Of a DNA stretch of 64,000 nt, positions 27,908-55,322 are shown one piece after another. Positions within the stretch are counted from its first letter, which is position 1; the number at the start of each line of letters is the position of its first letter. Made by a program: the position numbers and the translations under genes. Source of the DNA: an uncultured Alphaproteobacteria bacterium (lineage in GTDB: Bacteria > Pseudomonadota > Alphaproteobacteria > JAJFIK01). The stretch spans positions 1,354 through 65,353 of the forward strand of contig CAZLPU010000019.1 in assembly GCA_964561475.1 (NCBI GenBank), written 5' to 3'. Under the pieces are notes generated by a model. That model saw nothing but the letters and a program-made list of their open reading frames with translations, had not been told where the DNA came from and searched no databases.

Positions 27908-29125
27908 ATGAAAGAGGTTGAACTGATGAACGCAGATGTCCGGATCCACACCCTTCGCGCGGCGTTGTGCGGCCTGGGGCTGGTTGCCCTGGCGGGATGC
28001 GCCATGGACCGGGACAGTGCCCGTATGGCCCCGGGCGGCTCAGAGTGTCCGTCACCAACCGTGGCCGAGGGTTCCTGTACCGGTGCGCCCGCCGATGTGA
28101 AGCTCAACGACCTCCAGGCGGTGGGCTCCCACAACAGCTACAAGAGATTTCTGCCCCCTGCGGAACAATCCGCCCTGTCGCGCAGGGCATTCCGCCTCGC
28201 CATCGGCATCGATTACGGTCATGTGTCCCTTACGGAGCAACTGGATCTGGGCATGCGCCAGATCGAGCTGGACATTGTCCACGACCCGGAAGGGGGGCGC
28301 TATGCCGATCCCCTGGCCCCGCGCCTCACCGCCGGTCAGAAAGGCTCACGGCCCTTCGACAAAACGGGCCTGCTGGAGCCCGGTTTCAAGGTCCTCCACA
28401 TTCAGGACATTGATGTCCACAGCACCTGCGCCACCTTGATCCTTTGTCTGACGGAAATCCGGGACTGGTCGACGGCCAATCCGGACCATGGCCCGATCCT
28501 CATCATGATGAACGCCAAGGACGCCCCGATCGACCTGGATGGCGCCGTGGTGCCCCTCCCCTTCAATGCTGCCGCCTTTGATGCTCTTGATGGGGAAATC
28601 CTTTCGGTGTTTGCCCGTTCCTCCATCGTCATGCCCGACGATGTGCGCGGTGATGCGCCAACCCTGCGGGATGGTGCCCTGTCGGGCGGCTGGCCGGTGC
28701 TGGCAGAGGCCCGGGGCAAGGTGCTGTTCGCCCTGGACGAGGGCCCGGCGAAAGTGGAGGCCTATCTACGGGGCCGGGCATCCCTGGAGGGACTGCCCAT
28801 GTTCGTGAACTCGGTCTCCGAAGATGCGCCCCATGCGGCCTATTTCACCATCAACAATCCCCGCCGGGACCGCAAACGGATCCTGGACGCGGTCAAGGCC
28901 GGCTTTCTTGTGCGCACCCGGGCGGATGCCAATACCCTTGAGGCCCGGGGCGGGACGACAGGGCGCCGGGACGCGGCTTTTGCGTCAGGGGCCCATTATA
29001 TCTCCACGGATTATTACGAACCCAGGACCGAATGGAGCGATTACAAGGTGCGGCTTCCCGGACGGGGGCCCGTGCGCTGCAATCCGGTGAGACGGGACGA
29101 GAAGTGTGCGCCCATATCGGAATAG
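27908..29125 (+). CDS. lipoprotein, Ca2+-dependent phosphoinositide-specific phospholipase C-like (PI-PLC X-domain-like phosphodiesterase)
   Basis: Lipobox LVALAGCA. GSHNSYK motif and the overall pattern are as in bacterial PI-PLC-C1-like proteins. Confidence 0.65.
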   Translation: MKEVELMNADVRIHTLRAALCGLGLVALAGCAMDRDSARMAPGGSECPSPTVAEGSCTGAPADVKLNDLQAVGSHNSYKRFLPPAEQSALSRRAFRLAIGIDYGHVSLTEQLDLGMRQIELDIVHDPEGGRYADPLAPRLTAGQKGSRPFDKTGLLEPGFKVLHIQDIDVHSTCATLILCLTEIRDWSTANPDHGPILIMMNAKDAPIDLDGAVVPLPFNAAAFDALDGEILSVFARSSIVMPDDVRGDAPTLRDGALSGGWPVLAEARGKVLFALDEGPAKVEAYLRGRASLEGLPMFVNSVSEDAPHAAYFTINNPRRDRKRILDAVKAGFLVRTRADANTLEARGGTTGRRDAAFASGAHYISTDYYEPRTEWSDYKVRLPGRGPVRCNPVRRDEKCAPISE

Positions 29126-30669: not shown

Positions 30670-30912
30670 CTATATGCGCACCAGGAAAGCAATCTGGAAG
30701 AGGTAATAGCACAGTGCCACGACCAGAAGGATAAGCGGGACAGCCAGAAAGGCGAGTTGGGGTGAAGGCCGGTCGCTCACCACCATGGTCATGAACCAGA
30801 ACAGAAAAAAGGTGATCAGCATGAAGATCCGCCCAAGTTCGCTGGAGGCGGTCAGAGCGATGAGACCGGCAATGACCAGTGCTTTAATCAGCAGAAGGAA
30901 CACATTTCTCAT
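30670..30912 (-). CDS. hypothetical small membrane protein
   Basis: 80 aa with three hydrophobic segments. Weak support. Confidence 0.35.
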   Translation of the reverse strand: MRNVFLLLIKALVIAGLIALTASSELGRIFMLITFFLFWFMTMVVSDRPSPQLAFLAVPLILLVVALCYYLFQIAFLVRI

Positions 30913-30973
30913 TTTTCAATCCGTCCTGTGGCCGGGCGCCTGCTCTCGGCTATTCAACACCGGGACCCGGGTG

Positions 30974-31630
30974 TCAAAACAGTGTGGCAAGGGCTGGAGC
31001 AGATTGGGGCCGGGTCATGATCCGGTACCGGGACAGGTGGGGCAGGCCGATGAACCGGCAGGCGGTGGCATCCGGCCCCTCACCCACCGAGCCATGGCCC
31101 ACGGCCGCCGTGACGTTACCCCAGCACAGGGGGATCCGTTCGACGTGCTTCACACGGATGAGTTGGGATACGGCCTTGATGGCGACACCGCCCATGGTGA
31201 CAATGGTCTTCGGTCGGGCACGGATAAGCACATCCCGCCACAGATCCATGCCGAAGCCAAGGGCTTCATTTCTGTGTTCCAGGGTTTCCCAGGAGGGGGA
31301 TCGGAACGGCACGAGGTTGCCCGCCAGCACCTGCGGCGGCAGCGCGCCAAGCCGTTCGAACAGGGCGCGGACCTGGATCTGGAGAGGACTTTTACCGGCC
31401 GGATGCCTCGCCCAGGCTTCATGCACATAGGCGCTTTGCCCCTCAGCCATGGCAAAAGCACCCTGCCCTGCTTGCGCTTTCGTACCGCCTGGGTTCAATC
31501 CGATAAAGGCACAAGGCGCACCGTCAAGAACCGCCTCGGGGCTGTAGAGAAAGCGCCAGCCCAAGGCGTGGCCCTGGCGCTCATAGGCGGTCTCGATCCT
31601 GGCCGCCAGACCGGCCTTATCGGCGGACAA
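30974..31630 (-). CDS. uracil-DNA glycosylase superfamily protein
   Basis: FIGLNPGG motif (the GxNPG motif of Mug/UDG-like enzymes) and conserved downstream His. Confidence 0.5.
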   Translation of the reverse strand: MSADKAGLAARIETAYERQGHALGWRFLYSPEAVLDGAPCAFIGLNPGGTKAQAGQGAFAMAEGQSAYVHEAWARHPAGKSPLQIQVRALFERLGALPPQVLAGNLVPFRSPSWETLEHRNEALGFGMDLWRDVLIRARPKTIVTMGGVAIKAVSQLIRVKHVERIPLCWGNVTAAVGHGSVGEGPDATACRFIGLPHLSRYRIMTRPQSAPALATLF

Positions 31631-31746
31631 GGCGCATCACTCCAGGGTCTCGGACTGGTCAGTCGTCTGACGATCTGCGCTTTGCTTGACCTGGGACTGG
31701 GCCTCTACCTGGGACTGGGCTTGGGACTTAAGGAGCATCCGGCGCC

Positions 31747-34278
31747 TCAGTCGCCGCCTTGGGGAATGAAGAAGAAGCTGCCGTAGTCGTGACGGGCGGC
31801 GGTGATTTCCTGGAAGGTCGGCTGCTGGGCGGAGCCCGACACGGTGGAGGTGTCATTGAACACCGCTTCCCGGACCACAGGGGCCACATCCTCGATGCTC
31901 AGAATACGCCCTTCCGCGATGCGCAGGATACGCATGAAGTTTTCCGTGAACACCGAGTGGCGTTCCGAGCCCCCATCAAGAACCGGACGGTTGCCGCCGG
32001 AGGTGAGCACCAGACGCGACCGGCGCCGGGCCCGGTCCCGGTACCATTCCGTCAGGCGGCGGCCCTGGGCGGCACTGCGGGGCGACACCAGACGGGTGGG
32101 ATCGCCCGTGCCTGCGTAACAGGAATCCACCACCAGCAGCACCTGGCTTGCATCGATCGCACCCAGAATTTCCGAAATCTGCCGGGAGTCAATCCATTCG
32201 GATTTGGCGCTCTCCCCCTGGCCCGCTTCCGCCGGTACCCAATAGGTGGTGCTCGCATCATCCTTGTCGTACATGCCGTGGCCGGCATAAAACACCAGCA
32301 GGTGGTCCCGGCGCTGGAGCCTCTCCCGATAACTGTCCAGGGCCCGGAGGATTTCCAGCTTGGTGGCATCCCGCAAGGGCGTGACCTCGAAGCCGAACTC
32401 CTCGCGCAGCATATCGCCCACGGCCTCCGCATCCCGCAAGGCCGACGGCAGGGTTTCCCACTGGGCGTAGCTGCTGTTGCCGATCACCAGGGCGTGGTAG
32501 GTGCCAAAATCGATGTTGGAGAGATCGCCTACACGGGGCCCACGGACAACCTCGAGGACCGGTGCGGCGTCCTCGTCCCCTCCGCCCGCGGAAAGCTGAC
32601 CGTTGGAGCGCCAGACCAGAACACCGCGCCGGTTTTGATTGTCGATGGCCGCGATTTCCACCACATCATCGGCGCTCACCAGACCGACCCGTTCATCAAA
32701 CCGTCCGTCATCGGCGATATCGACGGGCTGATCGTTGATGGTGAGCAGAACAAGGTTATCCCGGCTGAACACCCGGCCTTTCAGGCGCACAAAGAAGGAT
32801 ACGGAGGTATCCGCACCGCGGAACACCCGCTTGGTGGGGCCTTCCACACTGAGAATGGTGATCTGGGGCGCGGACAGGGTCTCAATTTCCCGGTTAAGGT
32901 CCGCCAGTTCCTGTTCATAAGCGGCAACCCGGCCCCGCTCGGACGCAATGGTCTGCTCCAGCTCCTCCATCTTGCGGCGCGCGTCCGCAAGGCGGCGTTC
33001 CGCTTCTGCCAGCCGGGCCCGCATGGCTTCCAGTTCTTCCCGGCTGTTTTCCAGGGCCAGGCGGTTGGCATCCCGCTCTTCCGCCGCCGTACGCAGATCG
33101 TCTTCGAGGGAAGTGATCCGGGCCTCCCGCTCCACAAGAGCGGTCTGCAAACGGGCAATTTCCCCCGCCTTCTGCTCCACACTCTGGCGGCGTTCCTCCA
33201 CGGCGCGGGTCAGAGAGGCGACCCGGTCCTGAAGGGTGCGGATTTCAGCGCTGCTGCCTTGGGCACCCGCCTGGGCCGCTGATCGGGCTGCTTCCAGGGC
33301 GGCTTTGGCGGCAGCCAGCGCCACCTGGGTCTCGTTGTAGCGTTTCCGCTCCTCCGCCAACTGATCCTGGAGAGATGTGAGAGACTGACGGGCGTCGTCC
33401 CGCTCTGCCCGGAGCCGGACCAGGGCAGCGTCCCGGTCGGCAATCCGGGCCTCAAGAGCCGCGATGCGCTCACGGAGCTTTTCCGTCTCGCCGGACTGCT
33501 CCAGGGCCAGCGCCTCATCCACAATGCGGATCTGCTGGTCGTGGTTCGTTAGCCGCTGGCGCAGTCCTGCTGCCTCTTTTTCCAATGTGTCGAGACGGGT
33601 TTCCGCCTCAACCCGGCGACTTTCAGCGGTCTCCCGGGCCTTCTCCGAGGCTCTGAGCTGGTCGCGCACCGTGGAGACTTCCTTGCGCAGACGCTCGATC
33701 TCCTGTTCGAGAACGGCAATTCGCTGTTCTTCCTTGGACTGAAAAACAAGATCACCCAGACCGGTCGCCTTGCGGTACCAGAAAAGCGCCTGTTCGGAAT
33801 CCTGCTCCACACCCCGGCCCAATTCGTAAAGCCGCCCCAGACGGAGCATCGCCGTGGTGTCGCCCTTGTCGGCCGCCCGGCGGTACCATTTCGCCGCTTC
33901 GGCATAATCCTCGAAGGTGTCTTCGTAAAGCTCGCCTACGGTGCGGATCGCTTCCGGATCCCCTTTCTCCGCCTGGGTCTTCCAGGCCTGAAGCACCTCC
34001 CGGTAGCTCCCCGGATCGCTGGCGATGAACCGTCCGCCCCGGATGGCGCAATCCCGCTGGGACGTCTTGATCACCCGTCCGGGGATCATCCGGGTCTGAC
34101 GCTGCCCGATCTGACGGACACGGGGAGGAAGCTGGCAGGTGACGATCAAATATTGATCAGCAGGCGCAGCACTCGCTGCCCCGGGTACCGAGACGACCGC
34201 CGCCGGGGTCGCCACCAGTCCCGCCAGAAAGAAAAGAGACCAAAGAAAACGGTGTTTTTTGCTTTGCCGGTTGGACAT
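31747..34278 (-). CDS. secreted Sel1-repeat / long coiled-coil / caspase-like (peptidase C14) protein
   Basis: Signal peptide. Sel1 repeats (AAKWYRRAADKGDTTAM, ALFWYRKATGLGD). About 300-aa heptad coiled coil. C-terminal caspase domain with dyad LLVFYAGHG ... LLVVDSCYAG. Confidence 0.8.
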   Translation of the reverse strand: MSNRQSKKHRFLWSLFFLAGLVATPAAVVSVPGAASAAPADQYLIVTCQLPPRVRQIGQRQTRMIPGRVIKTSQRDCAIRGGRFIASDPGSYREVLQAWKTQAEKGDPEAIRTVGELYEDTFEDYAEAAKWYRRAADKGDTTAMLRLGRLYELGRGVEQDSEQALFWYRKATGLGDLVFQSKEEQRIAVLEQEIERLRKEVSTVRDQLRASEKARETAESRRVEAETRLDTLEKEAAGLRQRLTNHDQQIRIVDEALALEQSGETEKLRERIAALEARIADRDAALVRLRAERDDARQSLTSLQDQLAEERKRYNETQVALAAAKAALEAARSAAQAGAQGSSAEIRTLQDRVASLTRAVEERRQSVEQKAGEIARLQTALVEREARITSLEDDLRTAAEERDANRLALENSREELEAMRARLAEAERRLADARRKMEELEQTIASERGRVAAYEQELADLNREIETLSAPQITILSVEGPTKRVFRGADTSVSFFVRLKGRVFSRDNLVLLTINDQPVDIADDGRFDERVGLVSADDVVEIAAIDNQNRRGVLVWRSNGQLSAGGGDEDAAPVLEVVRGPRVGDLSNIDFGTYHALVIGNSSYAQWETLPSALRDAEAVGDMLREEFGFEVTPLRDATKLEILRALDSYRERLQRRDHLLVFYAGHGMYDKDDASTTYWVPAEAGQGESAKSEWIDSRQISEILGAIDASQVLLVVDSCYAGTGDPTRLVSPRSAAQGRRLTEWYRDRARRRSRLVLTSGGNRPVLDGGSERHSVFTENFMRILRIAEGRILSIEDVAPVVREAVFNDTSTVSGSAQQPTFQEITAARHDYGSFFFIPQGGD

Positions 34279-34426
34279 GCCGCACCTGTTTTTTTTAAGG
34301 AGGGTCAGATATCGCGTTTCCGAACGAAAAGAAGGCGCCTCGTTGTACCACGAGCGCCTTCCCCTCATTCATACCAATCATTCACGAACCAGCCCGGGCA
34401 TTCAAGAAGCAGATTGGGCTGCTGGC

Positions 34427-34480
34427 CCCAAGGTTCAAAACCCAAGGTTCAAAACCCACGGTTCAAAACCCATGGTTCAC
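34427..34480. repeat. 3.9 copies of a 14-bp tandem repeat (CCCAAGGTTCAAAA) between autotransporter stop and Sel1-caspase gene
   Basis: Direct reading: cccaaggttcaaaa / cccaaggttcaaaa / cccacggttcaaaa / cccatggttcac. Each unit contains GGTT-N-AACC inverted arms. Confidence 0.8.
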
Positions 34481-35946
34481 AGATTGAATGGCACCCGGAT
34501 TTCAGCGCTCACCGCGTGGCTGCTCAGACGATCGAGCCCCAGAACGGTGCCGTAATCAAGGGCTACATCGAAACGGTCCATGACATTGCCGGACACGCCG
34601 AAGCCGACAACAAAGCTGCTCCGGTCCGGCTCGTCGGTGATGAAGGTCCCGAAATCGCCGGCGGTGGAGGAGACACCAGACTGGGCCGTGTACTGAGCGC
34701 GCAGGGCCCGGCTGTCGTCGCTGAATTCCCGGACCCATTCACCCCGGGCATGCACCACAAGGATCGCAAAAGGGCCGTAGCCGGAGGCGTAGACCTTCGA
34801 GCCATGGGCGCCGACGGCCAGCTTCACCGATGTGATTTCCTGATCGCCGAAGGTGATGTTCAGACCCTGGGCCCCGGTTTCCCCGTAGCCGTCAATGTCT
34901 GCATTCACATAGTCCAGCCGCAGGGACGGCCCGAAATAAGTGGCCTTCGCAATCCGGAAATCGTAATCGGCGCCGACACTGACGGCGATGGTGTTCCCGT
35001 CGGTCTCCCCGTTCGCCGTCCGGCGCAACTGGCTGCCGCCGTTCAGGTTCAGGTCGAAGATGTTGATGCGCCGGTTCGTTTCGAAATCAGCGGCGGAGTA
35101 CTGGAACATGCCGTAGACGGAGAGCGCTTCGATCCGCGCGGGCTGATAGTACGCATACAGGGTGCCGGTCAACGCGTCCGTGTTGAACTCACCGCCGGCG
35201 GAGGCAGAATCCGCGCCCAGATCGGTGAAATCGGAGGACAACTGGCTGTAACCGAAGGACGCGCCGAGCCAGACGCCGCCATTGAAGGCGTAGTCCACAC
35301 CGGCGGTAATGGCGAAACCGTCGAACTCGAACCCGTTTTCCAGGCGGCTGCGCTCATAATCGCCGAAGAAGAAGCTGCCGTTCAGGAAGGCGCCCCACCG
35401 GCTGATGCCCAGGTCTTCGAATGCATCATCCTGGGCAGCGGCGGCCGCCGCACCGGCCACGAGGAAGCTCATGGGCTGGGCGTCGGACTGGATCTGACCG
35501 GATGCGGCCAAAGCCCGGCCGGTGTCCGCGCCCGGAGCGCTGGCAATCCCGGTCACGGAGCGGATCTGCTGGATCCGGGAATAGACATTGGTGAACTGCT
35601 GGGTGTTCAGTTCCGTGAGGCTGGAGCCCTGGGCGCTGAACTCTTCCGGCGCCACCTGCTCGAAGCCGTTGGAACCGCCCTGACGAAGCAGGGAGTTGCA
35701 GCGCTGGAACAGGTCCTCTTCATCGGAACTCAGCCCGCCACCGCCGCTCAAGGCTGCCAGATCCGGACAAATGGCCTGGACGAGCTGGCGCATTTCGCCG
35801 GTATTGCCGTCCTCGGAAAATCCGTTCGTCTCCTGAGCGGACACCGGTGCCGCCAGAGCGAAACACGCGGCGGCGAATGTGACCGCCGCGCCCCGTGTGC
35901 GCTGCGGCATGCCGTTGATCAGCTTCACATGCTTACTGAAAATCAT
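34477..35946 (-). CDS. autotransporter-type outer membrane beta-barrel protein (short passenger)
   Basis: Signal peptide MIFSKHVKLINGMPQRTRGAAVTFAAACFALAAPVSA. C-terminal ~280 aa have alternating beta-strand pattern rich in G/Y/F (GAFLNGSFFFGDYERS...GVDYAFNGGVWLGASFGY). Confidence 0.6.
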   Translation of the reverse strand: MIFSKHVKLINGMPQRTRGAAVTFAAACFALAAPVSAQETNGFSEDGNTGEMRQLVQAICPDLAALSGGGGLSSDEEDLFQRCNSLLRQGGSNGFEQVAPEEFSAQGSSLTELNTQQFTNVYSRIQQIRSVTGIASAPGADTGRALAASGQIQSDAQPMSFLVAGAAAAAAQDDAFEDLGISRWGAFLNGSFFFGDYERSRLENGFEFDGFAITAGVDYAFNGGVWLGASFGYSQLSSDFTDLGADSASAGGEFNTDALTGTLYAYYQPARIEALSVYGMFQYSAADFETNRRINIFDLNLNGGSQLRRTANGETDGNTIAVSVGADYDFRIAKATYFGPSLRLDYVNADIDGYGETGAQGLNITFGDQEITSVKLAVGAHGSKVYASGYGPFAILVVHARGEWVREFSDDSRALRAQYTAQSGVSSTAGDFGTFITDEPDRSSFVVGFGVSGNVMDRFDVALDYGTVLGLDRLSSHAVSAEIRVPFNL

Positions 35947-36310
35947 GGCCCCTCTACCCTTGCTCCCCATGCGCGCTATGCACGTCTTAATACTACTCTG
36001 AACGCTGCGGCATTATGGATAAGTGTGCAGTACCGGGTCAAGCCCGAGAAGAGTGTCATGATGAAGACTGTATTGGCGCGCGGATCAAGGTCTCAGCGCG
36101 GTCGAACCCACTGACATTGCCATAAGCTCATGTGATGGCCCGTTGAATCCATTTTCCAGGTATGGCCCGCTGACGAACACGGGGGCGGAGCAGAAAAAGA
36201 ATACAATCCAACCTGGGGGTTATAGTTTTCAGACCGTTGCCTGATCGATACATCACAAGCCGGGTCCCATGGCCCCTTATCCCGCTTTCCAAACCAGATG
36301 AGGCCGTCCC

Positions 36311-38005
36311 ATGCGCACCAAGACCATCTCAGGACCCGACCGCTTCCCCGATGGAGCGGAGCAGGTCAGCGGGACCATCATCATCCGGTTTGTCTCCCTT
36401 TTGATCCTGGCGGTGACCATCCTGGCGCTGTCCCGCGGCGCACCGGCCCTCGCCAATGAAGGGGCCGCATACGGCGGTGCCCAGGACAGGGACATAGACC
36501 GGGAGCGGGACCGGGAGCGCATCGCCCTGGTCATCGGCAACAGCAATTACCGGGATGCGCCCCTGGCCAATCCCATCCAGGATGCCCGGGTGATGAAAGA
36601 GGCCCTGGAGAAAGTGGGGTTCCAGGTCAATCTGCTGATTGATGAAGACCAGAAGACCATCAAACGGGCGATCCAGCAGCTTGGCCAGGATCTCCGGGCG
36701 GCCTCGAAGGATGCCATCGGGTTCTTCTATTTCGCCGGTCACGGCATCCAGTCCAACGGGGTGAACTACCTTATTCCTCTGAATGCGGAAATCACCACGG
36801 AAGCGGACCTGGAGATCGAGGCCGTGGATGCCAACTGGGTGCTGCGCTACATGGAGCAGGCGGGCAATTCCATCAATTTCCTGGTGCTGGATGCCTGCCG
36901 GAACAATCCGCTGGAACGCTCTTTCCGCAGCGCCACCAGGGGGCTTGCCCGGATGCGCGCGCCCACGGGCAGCGTGATCGTCTATGCCACCCGTCCCGGC
37001 GATGTGGCCCTTGATGACAGCGACTTCGCCGGCGCCCTGGCCGAAGAAATCCAAAAGCCCGGCGTGGCCACGGAAGAAATGCTCCGCAATGTGGGTGCCA
37101 AGGTCTATGAGACGACCCGGGGCCGCCAGCAGCCTTATGTGGAATCCTCCCTGATCGTACCGTTCTATTTCGCCGGCCCGCCGGAAGAGACCACCACGCG
37201 CCCGGCGGAACCGGAAATCGACTACCGGGTGGGCATGACGTTCCGGGATTGTCCGAACTGCCTGGAAATGGTCGTGCTGCCGGCGGGACGCTTCACCATG
37301 GGCGCGGCCCCGGACGAACAGGGGGCGACGGGCTGGGAACAGCCCACACGGATCGTCACCCTGTCCGAGAAGATCGCTATGTCGAAATACGAGGTCACCT
37401 GGGATCACTGGGACCGGTGCGTTGCGGACGGGTTTTGCCGACGGATCGCCAACGGACCGGTGCGGGATCAGGCTGCCCATCCGGTCAGCACGGTCCGGTG
37501 GCGGGACATCACCGGGCAAGGTGCTCAGTACAGGGGCTTTCTGGAATGGCTGAACGCGGCCCTTGAGGACAAGCCCTACCGTCTGCCCAGCGAGGCCGAA
37601 TGGGAATACGCCGCCCGCGCCGGCGCCCAGAGCCGGTTTGCCTGGGGGGATGAAGACCCGGTCTGCCTCACCGACGCAGCGAATGGGGCGGCCTTCAGCG
37701 CCTGCCAGCATAGCCGGCCCATTGAGGTCGGCCGGTTCCAGCCCAATGGCTTCGGTCTCTACGACATGCACGGCAATGTTGAGGAGTGGGTGCAGGATTG
37801 CTGGCACCCCTCCTACCGGGGTGCACCCCGGAACGGTTCCGCCTGGATGGGTGCCTCCGGGGGCGAATGCTCCCGGGCCGTGGTGCGGGGCGGCGCCTGG
37901 AACCACACCCCTGCCCTCCTGCGCTCGGCGGACCGCAACTGGGCGGAACGGGGGGCGGCCTATGACAGTCTGGGTTTCCGGGTGGTGCGGGACCTGCCCC
38001 GCTAG
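36311..38005 (+). CDS. caspase-like (peptidase C14) domain fused to FGE-sulfatase (SUMF1-like) domain
   Basis: N-terminal TM/signal. Caspase dyad FFYFAGHG ... LVLDACRNNP. C-terminal FGE-sulfatase motifs RLPSEAEWEYAARAG, GLYDMHGNVEEWVQD, RVVRGGAW. The FGE catalytic Cys pair is absent. Confidence 0.8.
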   Translation: MRTKTISGPDRFPDGAEQVSGTIIIRFVSLLILAVTILALSRGAPALANEGAAYGGAQDRDIDRERDRERIALVIGNSNYRDAPLANPIQDARVMKEALEKVGFQVNLLIDEDQKTIKRAIQQLGQDLRAASKDAIGFFYFAGHGIQSNGVNYLIPLNAEITTEADLEIEAVDANWVLRYMEQAGNSINFLVLDACRNNPLERSFRSATRGLARMRAPTGSVIVYATRPGDVALDDSDFAGALAEEIQKPGVATEEMLRNVGAKVYETTRGRQQPYVESSLIVPFYFAGPPEETTTRPAEPEIDYRVGMTFRDCPNCLEMVVLPAGRFTMGAAPDEQGATGWEQPTRIVTLSEKIAMSKYEVTWDHWDRCVADGFCRRIANGPVRDQAAHPVSTVRWRDITGQGAQYRGFLEWLNAALEDKPYRLPSEAEWEYAARAGAQSRFAWGDEDPVCLTDAANGAAFSACQHSRPIEVGRFQPNGFGLYDMHGNVEEWVQDCWHPSYRGAPRNGSAWMGASGGECSRAVVRGGAWNHTPALLRSADRNWAERGAAYDSLGFRVVRDLPR

Positions 38006-38064
38006 GACACGGACTCGGTGCCATGCTCCGCACACCACATTCACGGCCCTATTGACGGCCACAC

Positions 38065-39531
38065 TTACGGTTTGGGACGCACACTGTAGTCCTGGGAGGC
38101 CAGTGACCAGGCGATGGGCCGATTGCGGTCTCCGCCGCGCCAAACATCGGAAAGGGCCTTGACCACCTTGGCCAGTTCCGCCTGCCCGTTCTCGGCGACC
38201 TTGAACGGTTCATCCCCTTCCGGATCAAGCAGGGCACCGAAATCAACCTCGTCCTCGGTCAGGATGGCAATGACCTGGCCCTGGCCGTAGGGCTCACCGG
38301 CCACGAACTCGAAACCGTAGAAGGGTTCCGGGAAGGTGATGGTTTCGCCCGCGGCAATCCGGCTGGTGCGATCCTCCCGGTTCAAAAGCCCGTTGGGAAA
38401 GATCTGGGTCAGTGTTCCGTCCGGGGCATAATCCAGCAAAATGAGCCAGCCCGCCTTTTGGGTGGAGACCCGCATCCGGATCACCTCTCCGGCCCGATAA
38501 TCCGGCCCTGCCATTGTTTCAACCGTGAGCCCCGCCGCATTGGAGGCCACCACAATATCCGTCACGTCGTTGACCGAGGCCAATCCTTCCTCGGTGAGAG
38601 TATCCGCCTGGGACGTATTTTCCTTGGACAGAAGCAGCGAACGCATGGCGTTGGCGGAGGCTTCCAGGGTGGGCGTGAACCCCAGGCCCAGGGTGCGGCA
38701 GGACTCGTTTTTCTGGCACCAGGCTTCGGTCTTCTCCCGGGAGTAGCGCAAGAGTTCGGCGGTGCTCACATGGCCGTTCAAATTGAAATCAGCCTTGAAA
38801 TCCCGCAGACCCTCCAGGAAATGCCGGGTGAAGATCCCCCGCCCGTTTTCCTCCCAGGACATTTGGAAGGAGGCCGCGGCGGTCCAGATCTGATGCTCTT
38901 CCTCCCCGAATGCGAAACTTTCCTCGCTCCGGAATGCGGTCACCGTATCCGGCGCCACGTCCCGGGCCTCCCCGAACAGGGTACGCGGACGGGCATCTGA
39001 CGTTTCGGAGACGGACAAACCGATAGAACGGGAAATGGTGCCTGAATGGCAGGCGTCCACAATGAGAATGACCCTCCGGCCCTTCAGCTTCTTGAGGGTG
39101 GCGTAGATGTCATCATCGAGGATCTGACGGGGCTGGCGGCCTGCCTCGAAATCGTAAGGGACCAGGGTCTCATCAAGCCCGTCCGTTTCATCGTCATTCC
39201 TGTCGCGAACCTGTGATCCGTGTCCGGCATAATAGATCACCACCCGGTCACCGGGGTTGGTCTGGCGCACGAGGCCGTTCAGGGCAGCCCTGATGGAACT
39301 GCGCCGGGCCCGCCGGTTGATGAGCCGTTTCACTTCATCCTGCTTGAAACCCCACTGACTGATGAGAAAGTCATAGACTTCTTCGGCATCGTTTTTGGGG
39401 CCCATGAGCGGGGTCACCGCCTTGTACTCGGCAATGCCGATGACCAGCGCCCTCTGGCCTGCATGGCCCGTTCCTCCGAGGAACCACAATGTGACAGCAC
39501 ATATCGTCAGAGCAAGGACCAAACGGGCCAT
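38065..39531 (-). CDS. secreted caspase-like (peptidase C14) protein with DUF4384-like C-terminal domain
   Basis: Signal peptide. Dyad VVIYYAGHGSQ ... LIVDACHSGT. C-terminal beta-rich domain of the kind found after bacterial caspase domains. Confidence 0.8.
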   Translation of the reverse strand: MARLVLALTICAVTLWFLGGTGHAGQRALVIGIAEYKAVTPLMGPKNDAEEVYDFLISQWGFKQDEVKRLINRRARRSSIRAALNGLVRQTNPGDRVVIYYAGHGSQVRDRNDDETDGLDETLVPYDFEAGRQPRQILDDDIYATLKKLKGRRVILIVDACHSGTISRSIGLSVSETSDARPRTLFGEARDVAPDTVTAFRSEESFAFGEEEHQIWTAAASFQMSWEENGRGIFTRHFLEGLRDFKADFNLNGHVSTAELLRYSREKTEAWCQKNESCRTLGLGFTPTLEASANAMRSLLLSKENTSQADTLTEEGLASVNDVTDIVVASNAAGLTVETMAGPDYRAGEVIRMRVSTQKAGWLILLDYAPDGTLTQIFPNGLLNREDRTSRIAAGETITFPEPFYGFEFVAGEPYGQGQVIAILTEDEVDFGALLDPEGDEPFKVAENGQAELAKVVKALSDVWRGGDRNRPIAWSLASQDYSVRPKP

Positions 39532-41168
39532 CAGGGCCTCCCCGGTTGATAGGTGGTGAAGGCGAGAACACCCAGCCTGTGGGGCATGTCCTCCAATGCT
39601 GCGATCAGGAGCGAGCGCAGATCCTCCAGCCTCTTAGTGTCGTGCAATCTGGCGAATTGGGCGCCCATGGGTCCCATGCCGGGACCTGCGGCAATGGCAA
39701 TGAGGTGGTCAGCGCCGAAAGGAGGCACCACCTCGATATCATCCAGACTGAACCCGCTGCCGATCACGGATCCAAGGCTCTCGATCACCTGAATGGTGCC
39801 GTCGGAGGCCAGATTGATCAGGGCAAGGTGTTTTTCCTCCAGACCCTGCACATTGACGGTCACTTGATCCTTGTGGAAATAAAGGCTTTTGCGAGGCCTC
39901 AGACGCATCTCCACCGTCCGCCCCAGGGCCGACAGGATGATATCCTCGACAAGCTGCCATTTTTCGATGACCGACTGGAGATCTTCAGGTTTGTCCGGGC
40001 GGATCGTGGCGATTACATCCCCATTGGACACCACCGCACCCGTGGCGGTATCCCAGATGAGATCGGCGGTGGTGATATCGTCAATGAGCCGCGCCAGGGG
40101 AATGCGGGCGGCCGCGTCCGGCGGAACCTCCGAGCCCAGAATGTAGAGGGTCACCGGTCTGGGCTGGGAAATGGGTTGGGGCCGGGCGGTGCCCGCGCGC
40201 AACACAGCCTGCCCCCGCAACACGGGCTGGAGGTCGAGCCGGGGCAATTGCCGCCCGCTTGAGACCATACGGACGGTTTCCAGAACGAAGGCGCGGATTT
40301 CGCTCGTGGTCAGAATGCCGTCCTGGTCCTGGTCCGCCTGCCCCCTCAAGGCCCGGGCAAAGGCCCAACTCAGTGCCCCTCTGATTTCACCGTCGATTTT
40401 GAGTTCCGGGGAAAGCTCATCATCCTGAACGGCGGCCAGGTGGAAGACATGGCTGAGATCCACGATATCGCCATCTCCACCGACCGGCTCTGGACGCTCC
40501 AGGTCGTCCACGGGAATGTCCCCGTAATCGGTGTAGCGGGAGGCCAGCCTGGGCGCGCGGGGATCAAATCTGCGGGTCAGGGTGCCGGAATGGCAACTGT
40601 CCGTCACCAGAATGACAAACCGGTCCTTTGCCCGGATGAGCATCTGAAAAATGTCATTATCGACGATCCGTTCCCGGCTGGTCACACCCTCCCCGGCCAA
40701 TGGCGAAAAGGCCGCCAGCAGAAGGGTTTCATCCCGGCCATCGACCTCCTCACCCTTGTAGAACTCCGGTTCCTGGCCGCCATGCCCGGCATAGGAGAAG
40801 ATGATCGTGTCACCGGGACTGGAAGCCTCGAGAAGATCGTCCCAGGCCTGAAGAATGGCATCCCTGGTGGCGTTATGGTTCAACAGAAGGACCGTCTTCC
40901 GGGCGCCGATTTCCGCAAGGGAGGCGGCGATATCCTCCGCGTCCCGGACAGCACCGGCGAGGGGTTCCAGGACTGCATAATCGTCAATGCCGACCACCAG
41001 ACCGAAGGTCTCGCTGCGGTGAGCCTCTTCCCTTTGATTGTCACTTCTGGCCGGTCCCGGCGCAATCACGATAGCGAGGAGAAGCGCCAGAACCCAGGAA
41101 GACCACCCTGAAGAACCTGTGACCATGCTTTTCATCCATACACCTGTCCGTGTGCCCCTCATCAGCAA
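39531..41168 (-). CDS. secreted caspase-like (peptidase C14) protein with EF-hand insertion and DUF4384-like C-terminal domain
   Basis: Probable start at Met 41135 (MKSMVTGSS...signal). Dyad IIFSYAGHGGQ ... ILVTDSCHSGT. EF-hand loop DQDQDGILTTSEI. Overlaps the OmpA-like gene start by 7 bp and abuts the downstream caspase gene. Confidence 0.8.
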   Translation of the reverse strand: MLMRGTRTGVWMKSMVTGSSGWSSWVLALLLAIVIAPGPARSDNQREEAHRSETFGLVVGIDDYAVLEPLAGAVRDAEDIAASLAEIGARKTVLLLNHNATRDAILQAWDDLLEASSPGDTIIFSYAGHGGQEPEFYKGEEVDGRDETLLLAAFSPLAGEGVTSRERIVDNDIFQMLIRAKDRFVILVTDSCHSGTLTRRFDPRAPRLASRYTDYGDIPVDDLERPEPVGGDGDIVDLSHVFHLAAVQDDELSPELKIDGEIRGALSWAFARALRGQADQDQDGILTTSEIRAFVLETVRMVSSGRQLPRLDLQPVLRGQAVLRAGTARPQPISQPRPVTLYILGSEVPPDAAARIPLARLIDDITTADLIWDTATGAVVSNGDVIATIRPDKPEDLQSVIEKWQLVEDIILSALGRTVEMRLRPRKSLYFHKDQVTVNVQGLEEKHLALINLASDGTIQVIESLGSVIGSGFSLDDIEVVPPFGADHLIAIAAGPGMGPMGAQFARLHDTKRLEDLRSLLIAALEDMPHRLGVLAFTTYQPGRP

Positions 41169-42120
41169 TCCTGCCGTCCGTAACAGATCTCCACTCGACG
41201 GTCCATGCGCAGCCGTTCCTCCCGGGAGTAGCGGTCGGGATTGTCCGGCTGATAGGGTTCGGTCTCGCCTTTGCCGGTGACCGTAATCGCGCCCGTATAG
41301 CCCTTGTCCTTCAGGAAATCAGCCACGGTCCGGGCCCGTCGGATTGAGAGGGTCATGTTGTAGCCTGCGGGTCCGGAACTGTCGGAATGGCCGATCAGGG
41401 TAATGTCCGGCGTCCCGATCAGGCGCAGATTGATGAAGAGCTGCTCAGCATTCCTCAGGCTGACCCCGGTCAATTGTCTTGAGTTGCTGCCGAACCGAAT
41501 GGGAACGGCCACCCGGCGGATCTTGATCCCCCGCACCTGGGGGGCGCCCAGTCCGGTGGGGCGCCCTCCCCTGGTGGGTGTCGCCACGAAGTCCGGTGCG
41601 AGCAGGCGGGCCGTTTCGGCGTTTTTCATCAATCTGCGGACGATTTCCTCGCTGGGCCCCGGTTCCGGGGTCAAATCCGGATTGTCCACGGCATCGAGGG
41701 CCTGTTCGAAATGGAACTGGGCCGCGCCATAGTCCTTGCGGTCCAGGGCAATTTCGCCAAGAGTGGCGGAAATCTGCCACAGTCTTGCATAGGTCAGGGT
41801 TTCTTCAAGATAATCCGCATACCGCTCCCGCGGTTTACCGGCGCGAATCTCCGTCAGAACCTTCTGATAGCGCAGGGCAGCCACCCGCTTGCCCAAGTCC
41901 CGGACGAATGACGATGAGCAGGTCTCATCCCTGAGGGCCTCTTCATACAAGACCTCGAGTGCCGCCACATCCCGATCCCGCAAGGCCCGCTGGGCCTCCT
42001 CAAACAGCACCGCGCAATTGCGGATCTCCTGCGCCCTGGTCTGGGACGGTGCAGCGATCACGGCGCTCAATATTGCGCCCCCGAGCAGGATGGCTCCAGT
42101 CAAGATCCTCATCATGACCA
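41162..42120 (-). CDS. OmpA-family protein (TPR-like N-terminal region, OmpA C-terminal peptidoglycan-binding domain)
   Basis: Signal peptide MVMMRILTGAILLGGAILSAVIAAPSQTRA. C-terminal OmpA motif GHSDSSGPAGYNMTLSIRRARTVADFL. The annotated ORF extends to 42778, but the upstream part is Pro/Gly/Arg low complexity. Confidence 0.7.
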
Positions 42121-42174
42121 TTCTCCCATTCGGTGCCCCGTTCAGCCGGCCTTTGGGACCGGCCCCATGTCCCC

Positions 42175-43902
42175 TCAGACGGACCACTGGTCCAGCCAGG
42201 ATCGGTCCAGTCCATGTTTCCCATAATAGGCCTCGAGACGCTGGCGGTTCTTGCGCCCTTGAGACAGACCAAGATAATCGACCGCATTGTGGTGGAGCAA
42301 TTTGCGGAAGTCTTCCATGCTCCGGCCGGTGCTCTGGAAATGGCTGGTCAGGGCCGGGATGTAGGTTTCGTGGTCGGATTCCCGGCCCACCATGATCCAG
42401 TCGGTACCGAAGAGCAGCCGGTTCGCCGCATTGGGATAGTTCGTATAGAATGCAGATAACTGAGCGGCCAGGTCCCGTTTGCGCCGGGCTGGGAATTCCC
42501 TGGAGAACACGCTCTCCAGATAGCTGAGATCGGAATAGACCCGGGCCACATCCTCCCGTTCCATCATTTCTCCGACGGTGAATTCCCACGGCTTGCCCGG
42601 CGGGTTCCGGAAGGCCTCCTGAAAATCGCCGAAATGCCCCATATTGATGCGCAGTTTCGGATAGCGGGTGATCACCGGCTCCCAGAACCGGGGATGGGCG
42701 CGCCGGGCGAATGCGTCGCCCGCGCCCTGGCTGTCGTTGGTGTGGGTGATGATAGGTACTTCGTGCTCGGAGCACCATTCATAAAGCCGTCTCAGGGCCT
42801 CATCGATCCGCTGGGGGAAGCGGTCATGGGCCTGGGCCCGTTCCGGATAACAGACCGTTCCGTTCTGATTGCCCCAGGGATAAAATCCCATGGGCGGGTA
42901 GAGTTTGACGCCGACAAACCCGCGGTTCATGACCGCGTCTTCGACCATGGGCATCGCCTCGCCGGTGGCCAGTTCCCGCCAAGGGCAGAACGGCACCATG
43001 GTATGCATCCGCGCCCCCGACTCCTCGGCCACCCAGCGCTGGAGCCGGTCCATCAGGACAATCTGATCCGCCAGGGACGAGCGGGGCCGGTCATCGAGCC
43101 AGTAATCGAAATCCACGAGAAAGGGGGTGAACAGACGGACACCATCTGTCCGCCCATAGAGTTTGAGATACTCGCCAATGATCTGCCTGCGGGGTTTCAG
43201 CAGGAGAAGACCCCAACGCAAGGTATTGCTTATGGTCCCACGGGCGGCCAGCGCGCCTTCCGCAAGCCGACCCAGATCCTGATCGGTCATGCCGTCCAGG
43301 CTGCGGGCCATGGCGGTCTGGCCCGTCTCCCTGCGAAGGTCATCCAGAAAATCCTCAGCTCCCGGATCCCGGGCCAGAGCATCGTTTGACTCTCTGGGGC
43401 TTTCCGGCGAACCGGTCCGTGTGCTGCGGGCCCGCTCCTGGGCACCGGCCAGAACGGATTTGAGAATGTCGACGTCGCTTTCGCTCGTGGTCTCCACCCG
43501 GGCCCCGTTCAACCGGGCCAGTTCCTGGGCGGCGGTGAGCGAACGCCTGGACAACAGATCCACCAGCGCCCGGCCCACTCCGCCGAATACGGAGCGCCTC
43601 GCCTGGGCAAAGCAATAGGGATCCTCGAAATCCTCAAAAACCACCCGGCGCACAAATCCGCCGACGGGCAGGTCCGAGGCATTGAAGACGTGGGCGTGAA
43701 CGTCGATGGGAAAGGATGTTCCCTGTGCCTGTTGAACCCGGGAAATGTCCGGCGGTGCCGGAGTGCAATTGGTCAGCCCCAGGAGTGCAAACCCGGTCAT
43801 GCCCGTGAGAACGGATCGACGGTCCCGCAACGGATGGCCCCCGCTTCCAACCCCTGGAAATCCGTCCCCGCTGTAATTTTTGTCCGGTCTCGTCTTGGCC
43901 AT
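42175..43902 (-). CDS. TAT-exported amidohydrolase-2 family metal-dependent hydrolase
   Basis: Twin-arginine leader RDRRSVLTGMTGFALLGL. HxH start of the TIM barrel (IDVHAHVF). Conserved late Asp (LLFGTDW). Confidence 0.65.
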   Translation of the reverse strand: MAKTRPDKNYSGDGFPGVGSGGHPLRDRRSVLTGMTGFALLGLTNCTPAPPDISRVQQAQGTSFPIDVHAHVFNASDLPVGGFVRRVVFEDFEDPYCFAQARRSVFGGVGRALVDLLSRRSLTAAQELARLNGARVETTSESDVDILKSVLAGAQERARSTRTGSPESPRESNDALARDPGAEDFLDDLRRETGQTAMARSLDGMTDQDLGRLAEGALAARGTISNTLRWGLLLLKPRRQIIGEYLKLYGRTDGVRLFTPFLVDFDYWLDDRPRSSLADQIVLMDRLQRWVAEESGARMHTMVPFCPWRELATGEAMPMVEDAVMNRGFVGVKLYPPMGFYPWGNQNGTVCYPERAQAHDRFPQRIDEALRRLYEWCSEHEVPIITHTNDSQGAGDAFARRAHPRFWEPVITRYPKLRINMGHFGDFQEAFRNPPGKPWEFTVGEMMEREDVARVYSDLSYLESVFSREFPARRKRDLAAQLSAFYTNYPNAANRLLFGTDWIMVGRESDHETYIPALTSHFQSTGRSMEDFRKLLHHNAVDYLGLSQGRKNRQRLEAYYGKHGLDRSWLDQWSV

Positions 43903-48741: not shown

Positions 48742-48771
48742 GACAGTGTTTCCTTTTCTCCGGCGGGAGCC

Positions 48772-51163: not shown

Positions 51164-51358
51164 CGGTGTGACGTTGGGTCTTCTCGGTTTCACAGGCCAC
51201 TCCCTGATCAGTAAGATTGGATCCAAAGGGAGCAATGCCTGCGCCACGGTCGACAGCGCAAAGGACAAGGATCTCCGCCCCTTTTCCGCTACCGGAGGGG
51301 TTTTCCGGAGGAGGGTGACGCAAAGTGCAATGGCAGGTGTCGCAGATGGCTCGACAGG

Positions 51359-55239: not shown

Positions 55240-55322
55240 GGCCCATATCCCCCATCCTGCGCGTTCACGGACGTTACCCCTATCAGGTTAGGCTTAGCTG
55301 AAGGTAAGCTTGGTCATCACCA

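Follow-up and report, generated by a model that had tools for sequence, protein, structure and literature searches.

Four genes for caspase-like (Peptidase_C14) proteins crowd into 10 kb of the 64-kb window (the whole stretch of DNA analysed), beside genes for an OmpA-like protein, an amidohydrolase and an autotransporter-type barrel, and the question raised by this locus is whether these genes constitute one proteolytic system, several, or none. The reading considered fairly probable here is that the locus combines two modules (arguably three) of exported clan-CD (C14) cysteine proteases, each conserved independently, namely a three-gene operon (F-E-D), a gene pair (B-A) and, as the arguable third, the single gene C.

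Four caspase-like proteins with intact dyads

The four caspase open reading frames reported in an earlier reading of this DNA (hereafter the preliminary description) were recovered at the same coordinates:

31747..34278, reverse strand: gene A, 843 aa counted from Met31 of the open reading frame; in order, signal peptide, Cys-pair N-domain, Sel1 repeats, coiled coil, beta domain and C-terminal paracaspase-like C14 domain
31750-32496, reverse strand: Peptidase_C14 domain of gene A (His 32278-32280, Cys 32119-32121)
36311..38005, forward strand: gene C, 564 aa, starting with a signal peptide or signal anchor
36518-37168, forward strand: paracaspase-like Peptidase_C14 domain of gene C (His 36740-36742, Cys 36896-36898)
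38065..39531, reverse strand: gene D, 488 aa; signal peptide, metacaspase-like domain, invariant Cys pair and DUF4384 beta-sandwich
38662-39456, reverse strand: metacaspase-like domain of gene D (His 39220-39222, Cys 39049-39051)
39531..41162, reverse strand: gene E, 543 aa, starting with a signal peptide
40227-41009, reverse strand: metacaspase/GSU0716-like domain of gene E (His 40782-40784, Cys 40593-40595)

All four genes matched Pfam Peptidase_C14 with E-values of 1e-16 to 1e-33 (A, 1.5e-20; C, 9.1e-33; D, 1.1e-22; E, 2.5e-16), and no further caspase gene was found in the 64 kb. The His-Cys dyads were YAGHG (H667) and DSCY (C720) in A, FAGHG (H144) and DACR (C196) in C, YAGHG (H104) and DACH (C161) in D, and YAGHG (H127) and DSCH (C190) in E. 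Alignment to solved enzymes placed the D dyad on that of Yca1, with the D Cys at the Ala position of the C276A mutant, the E dyad on the catalytic residues of GSU0716, and the catalytic His of A on the MALT1 His. Moreover, the dyad was invariant or nearly so across the D, E and A families; in the A family, C48, C77 and D718-S719-C720 were invariant and H667 was kept in at least 90%. As the preliminary description had claimed, A, C, D and E are genuine C14 proteases with intact dyads, and their partner modules differ (Sel1 repeats plus coiled coil in A, FGE-sulfatase in C, DUF4384 in D and DUF4384-like in E). The caspase domains share 25-38% identity and fall into two subtypes, D and E being metacaspase/GSU0716-like and A and C nearest to MALT1; judged from these sequences they are old paralogs, and the earlier phrase "paralogous expansion with domain shuffling" overstated their recency.

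One hydrophobic 15-mer was found in each of the proteins A to F, always at the N-terminus, and because this is the single such segment in each protein, A, C, D and E are predicted to be exported from the cytoplasm, in line with the signal peptide or N-terminal transmembrane segment previously assigned to each caspase. In gene C the leader could be a membrane anchor in place of a cleaved signal. In the D family, a signal-like N-terminus was present in 30/30 members and the Cys pair C272/C278 was invariant, and a conserved Cys pair was also found in the F and A families.

The generic 'caspase' model of PADLOC matched all four proteins (E-values 2e-10 to 5e-24), several diverged paralogs are typical for conflict systems, and FGS/lectin-fold domains and Sel1/OmpA modules occur in those of PMC7159879, all of which would suit anti-phage or biological-conflict (abortive-infection) effectors such as type III CRISPR CHAT/caspase proteins, gasdermin-activating proteases and EACC1/NTPase-linked caspases. 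However, none of the four, at 31-75 bits, reached the 140 bits that NCBIfam requires for EACC1-type caspases, the proteins bear export signals, no DGR repeat was present, and no STAND, MoxR, vWA, NTPase, gasdermin or CRISPR gene was found within the 64-kb window. In addition, full-length D-like matches in IMG/VR numbered only four, all at contig ends, the others being giant-virus p20 domains. A conflict role is considered quite improbable.

The F-E-D operon

The conserved operon comprises genes D and E and the following further features:

38068-38544, reverse strand: DUF4384 beta-sandwich of gene D (Pfam E-value 6.7e-17)
39543-39920, reverse strand: DUF4384-like beta-sandwich of gene E (profile comparison, hhalign 98%, E-value 1.5e-13)
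39927-40160, reverse strand: small middle domain of gene E
41162..42115, reverse strand: gene F, 317 aa; signal peptide, helical N-domain and OmpA-like domain
41531-42028, reverse strand: helical N-domain of gene F, weakly TPR-like, with a conserved Cys pair
41180-41503, reverse strand: OmpA-like peptidoglycan-binding domain of gene F (Pfam OmpA E-value 1.2e-10)

Both junctions are TGATG stop/start overlaps, with the F stop on the E ATG and the E stop on the D ATG, which bears out the proposal that two of the caspases overlap in an operon with an OmpA-like gene. Orthologs of all three genes occur in unchanged order at three further loci (L001-L003), F being orthologous to gene 1 of the L003 operon (E-value 7e-59). 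Across 53 D-ortholog loci, F, E and D were all present in 40 and strictly adjacent in 33; the remaining 13 had no E or F nearby, some of them lying on short contigs and some being OmpA-fused. The triad ranges over Alphaproteobacteria, Gammaproteobacteria and Desulfobacterota, with hosts including Rhizobium, Ensifer, Shinella, Azospirillum, Competibacteraceae, Thiomargarita and Desulfogranum, and F has more than 150 full-length relatives at 50% clustering. Fusions of OmpA+C14+DUF4384 (many), F-like+E-like (P0227) and Trypsin+C14+DUF4384 were also found, and those joining OmpA to a caspase support the linkage of F, E and D.

The C-terminal domain of F resembles those of Pal, YiaD, YfiB and MotB, and keeps two conserved residues, Asp and Arg, of the motif for peptidoglycan binding; the motif GH(S/T)D...LS..RA is retained in the consensus of the F family; the roles of two residues of the OmpA-like motif are described in PMC6572160. 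Unlike Pal and OmpA-like anchors, F lacks a lipobox and a porin or transmembrane part; its helical N-domain, with a disulfide-type Cys pair, is specific to the family, and two caspases always adjoin F.

The most likely mechanism for this translationally coupled operon, as far as sequence features can suggest one, is a pair of periplasmic proteases that are tethered to peptidoglycan, specific for Arg/Lys and able to bind Ca2+. F would be soluble in the periplasm and bind peptidoglycan non-covalently through its OmpA-like domain, while the proteases probably dock on its helical N-domain. E and D would be two diverged metacaspase-type enzymes, both apparently competent for catalysis, and the DUF4384 domains at their ends, both of which are macroglobulin (MG)-like beta-sandwiches, probably serve partner or substrate recognition. 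Together, the three proteins may process or degrade envelope proteins at the cell wall.

Release or surface display of the proteases as host-interaction or nutrient-acquisition factors, after the manner of secreted clan-CD gingipains and clostripain-like enzymes, is unlikely. Gingipains (C25) and clostripain-like proteases (C11) belong to families other than that of the C14 genes here and, unlike D and E, use a T9SS secretion route, act extracellularly and have no peptidoglycan-anchor partner. Moreover, an OmpA-like peptidoglycan-binding domain, which acts in the periplasm, is joined to E and D by gene coupling and, in many relatives, by fusion. Neither protease showed associated secretion-system genes (T2SS, T9SS CTD or T1SS signals), and hosts of the triad include free-living soil and sludge bacteria.

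Specificity and calcium features of D and E

Each of the two proteases carries a putative Ca2+-binding loop:

38755-38790, reverse strand: EF-like loop of gene D, DFNLNGHVSTAE
40299-40334, reverse strand: EF-hand loop of gene E, DQDQDGILTTSE

The S1-pocket Asp residues (equivalents of TbMCA2 D95 and D211) were invariant in the D and E families, and this acidic pocket predicts cleavage after Arg or Lys. With regard to the metacaspase Ca2+ site as defined in PMC4357240 and PMC9622860, three of the four Asp residues (D173, D189 and D190) were invariant in both families, and the fourth ligand (TbMCA2 Asp220, Cys+7) was an invariant Arg in both. The preliminary description had placed an EF-hand in one protein; an EF-hand-type loop does exist, but in D as well as in E, and below Pfam thresholds (E-value 0.019). 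Since the metacaspase acidic cluster and the EF-like loop are both conserved, a Ca2+ link for D and E is plausible; the preliminary description had raised Ca2+ control as a possibility. The Ca2+ level in the periplasm tracks that of the medium, and Ca2+ may therefore be a structural cofactor instead of a signal.

Metacaspases are cytosolic enzymes, and to our knowledge no periplasmic metacaspase is known. Compared with type I/II metacaspases (Yca1, TbMCA2, AtMC4 and AtMC9) and GSU0716 (PDB 3bij), D and E have a signal peptide and no N-terminal prodomain. They further differ from metacaspases in the Arg at the fourth Ca2+ ligand, the additional EF-like loop, the C-terminal DUF4384 sandwich and the tie, via operon or fusion, to an OmpA-like peptidoglycan binder.

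The B-A pair

Gene A, whose exact 843-aa protein is present in NCBI, lies downstream of an autotransporter gene:

about 33739-33996, reverse strand: Sel1 repeats of gene A (Pfam E-value 6.9e-14)
about 32854-33741, reverse strand: coiled coil of gene A, ~300 aa (coiled-coil-type matches)
34477..35910, reverse strand: gene B, short autotransporter with signal peptide, ~170-aa passenger and beta-barrel (Pfam Autotransporter E-value 1.1e-37)

B lies 108 nt upstream of A on the same strand. Homologous barrels adjoined A homologs at all six loci looked up, and B-like barrels were found near A in 46/80 A-family metagenome loci versus 0/80 control loci. A-family genes have a conserved partner in the autotransporter B. 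In this second module, a paracaspase-like protease would sit on a long Sel1/coiled-coil stalk, and the short barrel would be its outer-membrane anchor or else its substrate.

MALT1 is Arg-specific. Among solved structures, MALT1 was nearest to the caspase domains of both A and C (E-values 2e-6 and 4e-13, respectively), which keep the Asp two residues ahead of the catalytic Cys; the resemblance is one of sequence. Unlike MALT1, A and C lack death and Ig domains, are predicted to be exported and carry other partner domains.

The two sets of loci bear on the earlier proposal of a single dedicated system for regulated proteolysis outside the cytoplasm, possibly gated by Ca2+, to which the four caspases would belong along with the autotransporter, the OmpA-like protein and the TAT amidohydrolase. 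Seven genes, each with an export signal, lie in 12 kb; 12/53 D-ortholog loci have a C-like caspase no more than 10 kb from the triad; L001 and L003 hold several caspases each; and one locus (L151) pairs A-type with DUF4384-type caspases. However, no G-like amidohydrolase, B-like barrel or A-like gene was found around the 53 D orthologs, and the 80 A-family loci yielded one D-like, one C-like and one F-like gene and no E-like gene. Furthermore, the genes use both strands and form at least three transcription units, and the caspase domains split into two subtypes at 25-31% identity. A single system is very unlikely, being largely refuted by the D-ortholog (n = 53) and A-family (n = 80) comparison: F-E-D is conserved, but the 12-kb cluster as a whole is scattered in related genomes, and the suggested co-occurrence of caspase, OmpA-like and amidohydrolase genes held for the first two (40/53) but not for the amidohydrolase (0/53).

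At the other extreme, unrelated exported hydrolases might be adjacent by chance and form no multi-protein modules, which would fit the lack of conservation of the whole cluster and the assorted envelope and secreted-protein genes of the wider region. Against this stand the TGATG overlaps of F/E/D, their cross-phylum conservation, the fusion proteins and the excess of B-like barrels near A over controls (46/80 versus 0/80). Chance adjacency is extremely unlikely overall and, for F-E-D and B-A, is refuted by the conservation data.

Previously described architectures

Exported prokaryotic caspases and OmpA neighbours have been known since 2012, and the modules F-E-D and B-A themselves are uncharacterised. 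In a survey that tested no function, Asplund-Samuelsson et al. (PMC3501461) described prokaryotic caspase homologs (orthocaspases) with N-terminal transmembrane or signal segments and extracellular localisation, C14 fusions with Sel1, FGE-sulfatase (the architecture of gene C) and peptidoglycan-binding domains, 14 metacaspase operons that include OmpA, and alphaproteobacterial operons with more than one metacaspase. In contrast, the OmpA-C14-C14/DUF4384 triad and the autotransporter-Sel1/coiled-coil-C14 pair were not defined there as recurrent units, and the literature search turned up no paper in which either module is defined or tested; the earlier statement of novelty is partly correct. The preliminary description had also missed B as a partner of A and F-E-D as a widely conserved triad.

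Gene C and the neighbouring gene G

Two features complete the cluster:

37226-37996, forward strand: PvdO-like FGE-sulfatase/C-type-lectin-fold domain of gene C (Pfam FGE-sulfatase E-value 4.5e-49)
42175..43902, reverse strand: gene G, Amidohydro_2 (Pfam E-value 5.7e-19) with a twin-arginine-like RDRRSVL leader

PvdO is a periplasmic protein. The C-terminal domain of C matched it over the full domain (PDB 5hha, E-value 6e-46) and has kin in the non-catalytic FGE-fold/C-type-lectin (FGS) domains, including PorK/GldK and TvpA. Like PvdO, it is free of Cys after the RGG.W motif, the region where FGE carries its two catalytic cysteines, and it lacks those residues. Unlike PvdO, the domain is fused to a caspase and stays far under the NCBIfam PvdO equivalog cut-off (197 versus 500 bits), and neither a pyoverdine cluster nor a DGR or DGR-type repeat was found with gene C. 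C may represent a third, stand-alone exported caspase, with targeting by the non-catalytic lectin-fold domain.

The presence of G and B as amidohydrolase and autotransporter neighbours was confirmed, and the surroundings of the cluster are a mixture of envelope and secreted-protein genes. With G-like amidohydrolases in 0/53 D-ortholog loci and 0/80 A-family loci, G is a mere neighbour and not a conserved partner; it shares the strand of F, starts from an upstream position only ~57 nt away, and may be co-transcribed with F in the window.

Gene organization of the caspase-like region

Seven genes occupy 31.7-43.9 kb of the window (G+C content, 62%), and the cluster consists of two conserved modules, an OmpA-like gene with two metacaspase-like genes (F-E-D) and an autotransporter gene with a Sel1/coiled-coil/caspase gene (B-A), together with one already catalogued architecture (gene C).

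Genes of the caspase-like region (coordinates, strand, product)
31747-34278, minus strand: A, caspase-like protein with Sel1 repeats and coiled coil, 843 aa
34477-35910, minus strand: B, autotransporter, 477 aa
36311-38005, plus strand: C, caspase-like protein with FGE-sulfatase domain, 564 aa
38065-39531, minus strand: D, caspase-like protein with DUF4384, 488 aa
39531-41162, minus strand: E, caspase-like protein, 543 aa
41162-42115, minus strand: F, OmpA-like protein, 317 aa
42175-43902, minus strand: G, amidohydrolase (Amidohydro_2), about 575 aa

The gene calls of A, C, D, E, and F were confirmed by identical proteins deposited in NCBI. Several long open reading frames antisense to or overlapping real genes (30785-31786 on the plus strand, 31759-33282, 34153-36114, and 36329-38143) were treated as non-coding, since frames of this kind are common in high-G+C DNA and translated into low-complexity sequence rich in Arg, Gly, and Pro. 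Between 31.0 and 44.7 kb, predicted promoters and terminators were no more numerous than in shuffled controls.

Caspase domains and predicted export

All four caspase-like proteins scored well above the Pfam Peptidase_C14 cut-off of 21.4 bits (A, 74.3 bits, E-value 1.5e-20; C, 114.3 bits, 9.1e-33; D, 81.4 bits, 1.1e-22; E, 60.5 bits, 2.5e-16), with the caspase-hemoglobinase fold of family C14. The GHG and D[AS]C motifs of the His-Cys dyad were intact in each protein and kept in the family alignments, with Cys161 of D aligned to the mutated residue of Yca1 C276A, the dyad motifs of E to those of GSU0716, and the His of A to that of MALT1. The four dyad-bearing C14 proteases claimed in the preliminary description were thus confirmed by Pfam scores and by alignment to solved enzymes, and its domain assignments were likewise recovered by Pfam, both for the partner domains (Sel1 and coiled-coil-type in A, FGE-sulfatase in C, DUF4384 in D) and for the neighbors (OmpA in F, Amidohydro_2 in G, and an autotransporter beta-domain in B). 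Pairwise identity among the four caspase domains was 25-31%, except for D and E (38%); the nearest relatives of D and E were metacaspases and GSU0716, and those of A and C the paracaspase MALT1. Judged by sequence, the four caspases are not a recent expansion, and a profile search of the 64 kb, using related genes for caspases, DUF4384 proteins, and trypsins as queries, detected no further copies.

For export, each of the proteins A to F had one hydrophobic 15-mer, located N-terminally, with basic residues ahead of it and Ala-X-Ala-like sites behind it; the leader of C could alternatively be a signal anchor. In the D family, an N-terminal signal-like segment was present in 30 of 30 aligned members, among which the Cys pair C272/C278 was invariant. 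Conserved Cys pairs were also observed in the N-domain of F and in A (C48/C77), all consistent with disulfides formed in an oxidising compartment. In addition, OmpA-like, PvdO-like, and Sel1 domains are typically extracytoplasmic, and export of A to F is strongly predicted. The cluster proteases are genuine members of family C14, predicted to be exported and probably active. The leader of G contained a twin-arginine-like RDRRSVL followed by TGMTGFALLGL.

The F-E-D module

The three genes of this triad are joined by TGATG overlaps, at the F stop/E start and the E stop/D start. The same order of OmpA-like (about 305 aa), C14 (about 525 aa), and C14-DUF4384 (about 483 aa) genes was kept in two unrelated assemblies, with orthology E-values of 7e-59, 7e-105, and 4e-109, respectively, and with D homologs sharing 42-45% identity (best D ortholog, 45%). 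A comparative scan restricted to a single genome from each species yielded 80 loci, 53 of them with a D ortholog; E- and F-like genes were both found in 40/53, and in 33 of these 40 the triad was strictly adjacent and co-oriented. Its hosts include Rhizobium, Pararhizobium, Ensifer, Shinella, Azospirillum, and Roseibium, as well as Cohaesibacter, Boseongicola, Competibacteraceae, Thiomargarita, and Desulfogranum. Gene fusions tie the parts of the triad together: an OmpA+C14+DUF4384 architecture, about 660-680 aa in length, is found in many relatives of D, others are Trypsin+C14+DUF4384 proteins, and one relative (P0227, 915 aa) joins an F-like to an E-like part.

The F family was compact: a search of 1.84 billion representatives found over 150 full-length relatives, each about 300 aa long. 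F matched the OmpA profile with 42 bits (cut-off, 27.2), and the peptidoglycan-contact motif GH(S/T)D...LS..RA was kept across 29 family members, with peptidoglycan binding by F being predicted; the roles of the motif's two contact residues are set out in PMC6572160. The DUF4384 domain (PF14326) of D scored 61.8 bits (cut-off, 27; E-value, 6.7e-17). E itself was sub-threshold for PF14326 (14.1 bits), its hhalign match to the D-family domain was 98%, and many E orthologs carry PF14326.

Additional genes accompany the triad in some lineages. In Rhizobiaceae-type loci (among L016-L052; e.g., L051:792-12397 of Pararhizobium sp. O133), it is preceded by two tightly packed same-strand genes, the first encoding a NOX-like membrane reductase of 556 aa with Ferric_reduct, FAD, and NAD domains, and the second a protein of 1092 aa in which several cytochrome c domains are combined with DUF4384 at the C-terminus; this arrangement suggests periplasmic redox chemistry linked to the caspase pair. 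In some Alphaproteobacteria (L003:11551-15656, and also L001, L004, and L007), five extra genes follow, all with signal peptides.

Genes following the triad in locus L003
DUF4384 protein, 372 aa
OmpA protein, 168 aa
DUF4384 protein, 196 aa
trypsin-like protease, 298 aa
caspase-like protein, 277 aa

The last of these lacks the dyad, as YFAGIG replaces the His motif and the catalytic Cys is absent, and is likely a pseudo-protease. The five-gene extension was absent from the window.

Predicted specificity and calcium binding of D and E

The S1-pocket aspartates of the metacaspase TbMCA2 are Asp95 and Asp211 (PMC4357240). Their equivalents, positioned via the Yca1 alignment, were invariant in D (D48 and D159) and in E (D74 and D188), and from these acidic residues D and E are predicted to cleave after Arg or Lys. 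The metacaspase Ca2+ site is formed by Asp173, 189, 190, and 220 (TbMCA2; PMC4357240, PMC9622860); equivalents of Asp173, 189, and 190 are invariant (D120, D139, and D140 in D), and at the position of Asp220 (Cys+7) both families have an invariant Arg (R168 in D and R197 in E). Furthermore, a canonical EF-hand-type loop was identified in D (DFNLNGHVSTAE) and E (DQDQDGILTTSE), conserved across both families and placed between two caspase-domain helices in models of the two proteins. The EF-hand Pfam score was 14.9 bits and thus sub-threshold (cut-off, 25.9), and a relative, P0239, reached 25.0 bits, slightly short of the same cut-off. Ca2+ binding by D and E is plausible from these residues, whereas the Ca2+ control raised in the preliminary description is doubtful, as Ca2+ levels in the periplasm follow those of the medium.

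The B-A module

The autotransporter beta-domain of B (PF03797) was matched with 130.6 bits over residues 202-474 (E-value, 1.1e-37), following an N-terminal hydrophobic segment and a short passenger of about 170 aa. Few proteins share the architecture of A (Sel1, coiled coil, and C14): about 20 full-length homologs were found, with identities of 29-38%. In all six independent loci, an autotransporter beta-domain gene was found within 6 kb of the A homolog, in varying orientation, and these barrels were homologous to B (blastp E-values, 9e-41 to 3e-14), the best match spanning B nearly end to end. Of 80 metagenomic A-family loci, 46 contained a B-like barrel, which lay within 500 bp of A in 32 loci; where at least 6 kb of flank was available, the proportion was 31/41. 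A control search around D-like genes, with B as the sole query and a looser threshold, detected a B-like barrel in 0/80 loci (1.35 Mb). These counts exclude B as a partner of the E/D system and identify it as a conserved partner of A, for which it may serve as either an outer-membrane anchor or a substrate.

In the A-family set, Ser/Thr protein kinase genes adjoined A-family genes in 30/80 loci (L160-L239; also seen in L156, L157, and L159) and PP2C phosphatase genes in 12/80, often together with the autotransporter. Neither a kinase nor a PP2C gene was found near A in the window.

Gene C and its lectin-fold domain

The FGE-sulfatase profile matched C with 167.8 bits (E-value, 4.5e-49), and the FGE fold was present. 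The closest match of the C-terminal domain was periplasmic PvdO, over the full length (E-value, 6e-46), followed by weaker matches to PorK/GldK, TvpA, and FGE; C was far under the PvdO equivalog cut-off. Inspection of the sequence after RGGAWN (the RGG.W motif) revealed no Cys in the region where FGE has its two catalytic cysteines. C is best read as carrying a non-catalytic lectin-fold binding domain, rather than as a catalytic FGE. Diversification of this domain by a diversity-generating retroelement (DGR) was rejected, as no template/variable repeat involved 37.2-38.0 kb; the ORFs scanned in the window included no reverse transcriptase. C-like genes occurred near the triad in 12/53 loci and were multiple in L001 and L003; C14+FGE-sulfatase was the fifth commonest architecture in a 2012 survey (PMC3501461).

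Separate company of the modules and rejected associations

The preliminary description had regarded the four caspases and their envelope neighbors as one dedicated system. In the 80 A-family loci, D-, C-, and F-like genes were each seen once and E-like genes never, and in the 53 D-ortholog loci A- or B-like genes were never seen. The modules thus keep separate company in relatives, and the 12-kb cluster is accordingly a set of modules lying side by side; exported caspase-family proteases in conserved modules were upheld, and the single 12-kb system was contradicted by the co-occurrence counts. G was also rejected as a conserved partner, with a G-like amidohydrolase in 0/53 D-ortholog and 0/80 A-family loci.

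An assignment to the EACC1/NTPase-linked conflict caspases was rejected, since all scores against the EACC1-associated caspase model (31-75 bits) were below the cut-off of 140 and no STAND, MoxR, or vWA NTPase was found in the window. FGS, Sel1, and OmpA modules do occur in NTPase-centred conflict systems (PMC7159879), but those systems have NTPase partners that are absent here. Matches in defence-system libraries were limited to a generic caspase model, noise from coiled coils (JetC and LmuB), and OmpA hits of the MotB type, and NCBIfam matches were all under cut-off.

Phage association was rejected as well: only four full-length D-like matches were found in IMG/VR (L084-L087), and as all lie at contig ends, they probably represent host sequence flanking predicted prophages. 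On viral contigs, relatives of the D caspase domain were mostly p20-only and located on giant-virus (GVMAG) contigs (L089-L150, IMG/VR).

Possible roles and relation to previous work

Caspase homologs of bacteria are mostly considered as effectors of death or immunity acting in the cytoplasm, and we know of no exported one with a known substrate or role. In silico, the general phenomenon is already known: Asplund-Samuelsson et al. (2012; PMC3501461) reported N-terminal transmembrane or signal segments with likely extracellular localisation, fusions to Sel1, FGE-sulfatase, and peptidoglycan-binding domains, OmpA within 14 metacaspase operons, and multi-metacaspase operons in Alphaproteobacteria. 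In the open-access literature, no paper was found that defined or tested the F-E-D triad or the B-A pair, or that described a periplasmic, OmpA-linked, or autotransporter-linked caspase system. New here are the two modules themselves, how widely they occur, the fusions, and the macroglobulin-like nature of DUF4384. The present analysis replaces a vague caspase cluster with two sharply defined gene sets.

It is conceivable, at rather long odds, that F-E-D forms the core of a widespread periplasmic caspase machine and B-A a second, outer-membrane-linked caspase device. In such a machine, E and D would both be active metacaspase-like enzymes tethered to peptidoglycan by F, with an initiating or regulatory part for E and an executioner part for D, and the macroglobulin-like DUF4384 sandwich would be a shared adaptor recruiting lineage-specific partners. 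In some Alphaproteobacteria, these partners would be a trypsin-like protease, a pseudo-caspase, and additional OmpA and DUF4384 proteins; in Rhizobiaceae, they would be the NOX-like reductase and the multi-haem cytochrome-DUF4384 protein. F-E-D might thereby constitute an extracytoplasmic proteolytic cascade that senses or executes cell death or damage to the envelope. Should the triad prove to be a protease pair tethered to peptidoglycan, it would represent a new class of envelope proteolysis beside the DegP, Prc/Tsp, and CtpA types, and, if true, would inform the pre-eukaryotic origin of caspase regulation via Ca2+ and adaptor domains. Because cultured genera with sequenced genomes, such as Rhizobium, Ensifer, Shinella, and Azospirillum, also carry the triad, periplasmic caspase function is directly testable.

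Wider genomic context

The wider window is ordinary chromosome, encoding a TonB receptor, two-component systems, GGT, PhaC, an MFS transporter, PI-PLC, an RTX protein, and an alginate-like polysaccharide cluster; the single find of the Rfam and tRNA scan was a tRNA-Lys at 62.5 kb. Two more secreted Ca2+-binding proteins are encoded near the caspases (RTX/DUF4114 protein and PI-PLC), two envelope-remodelling genes are also present, and the alginate-like exopolysaccharide cluster spans 47209-57032.

Selected genes of the wider window
5384-6637: LpxR-type lipid A deacylase, envelope remodelling
7511-8764: YkuD L,D-transpeptidase, envelope remodelling
27908-29125: Ca2+-dependent PI-PLC with a signal or lipoprotein-like leader, upstream of the caspase region (E-value, 1.8e-114)
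44685-46628: RTX calcium-binding repeat protein with DUF4114, just past G (HemolysinCabind E-value, 2.8e-59)
47209-48741: MBOAT O-acyltransferase, alginate-like cluster
48772-50079: Sel1-repeat protein, alginate-like cluster
51359-52972: family-2 glycosyltransferase, alginate-like cluster
52960-54528: PilZ+HlyD protein, alginate-like cluster
55614-57032: UDP-glucose/GDP-mannose dehydrogenase, alginate-like cluster
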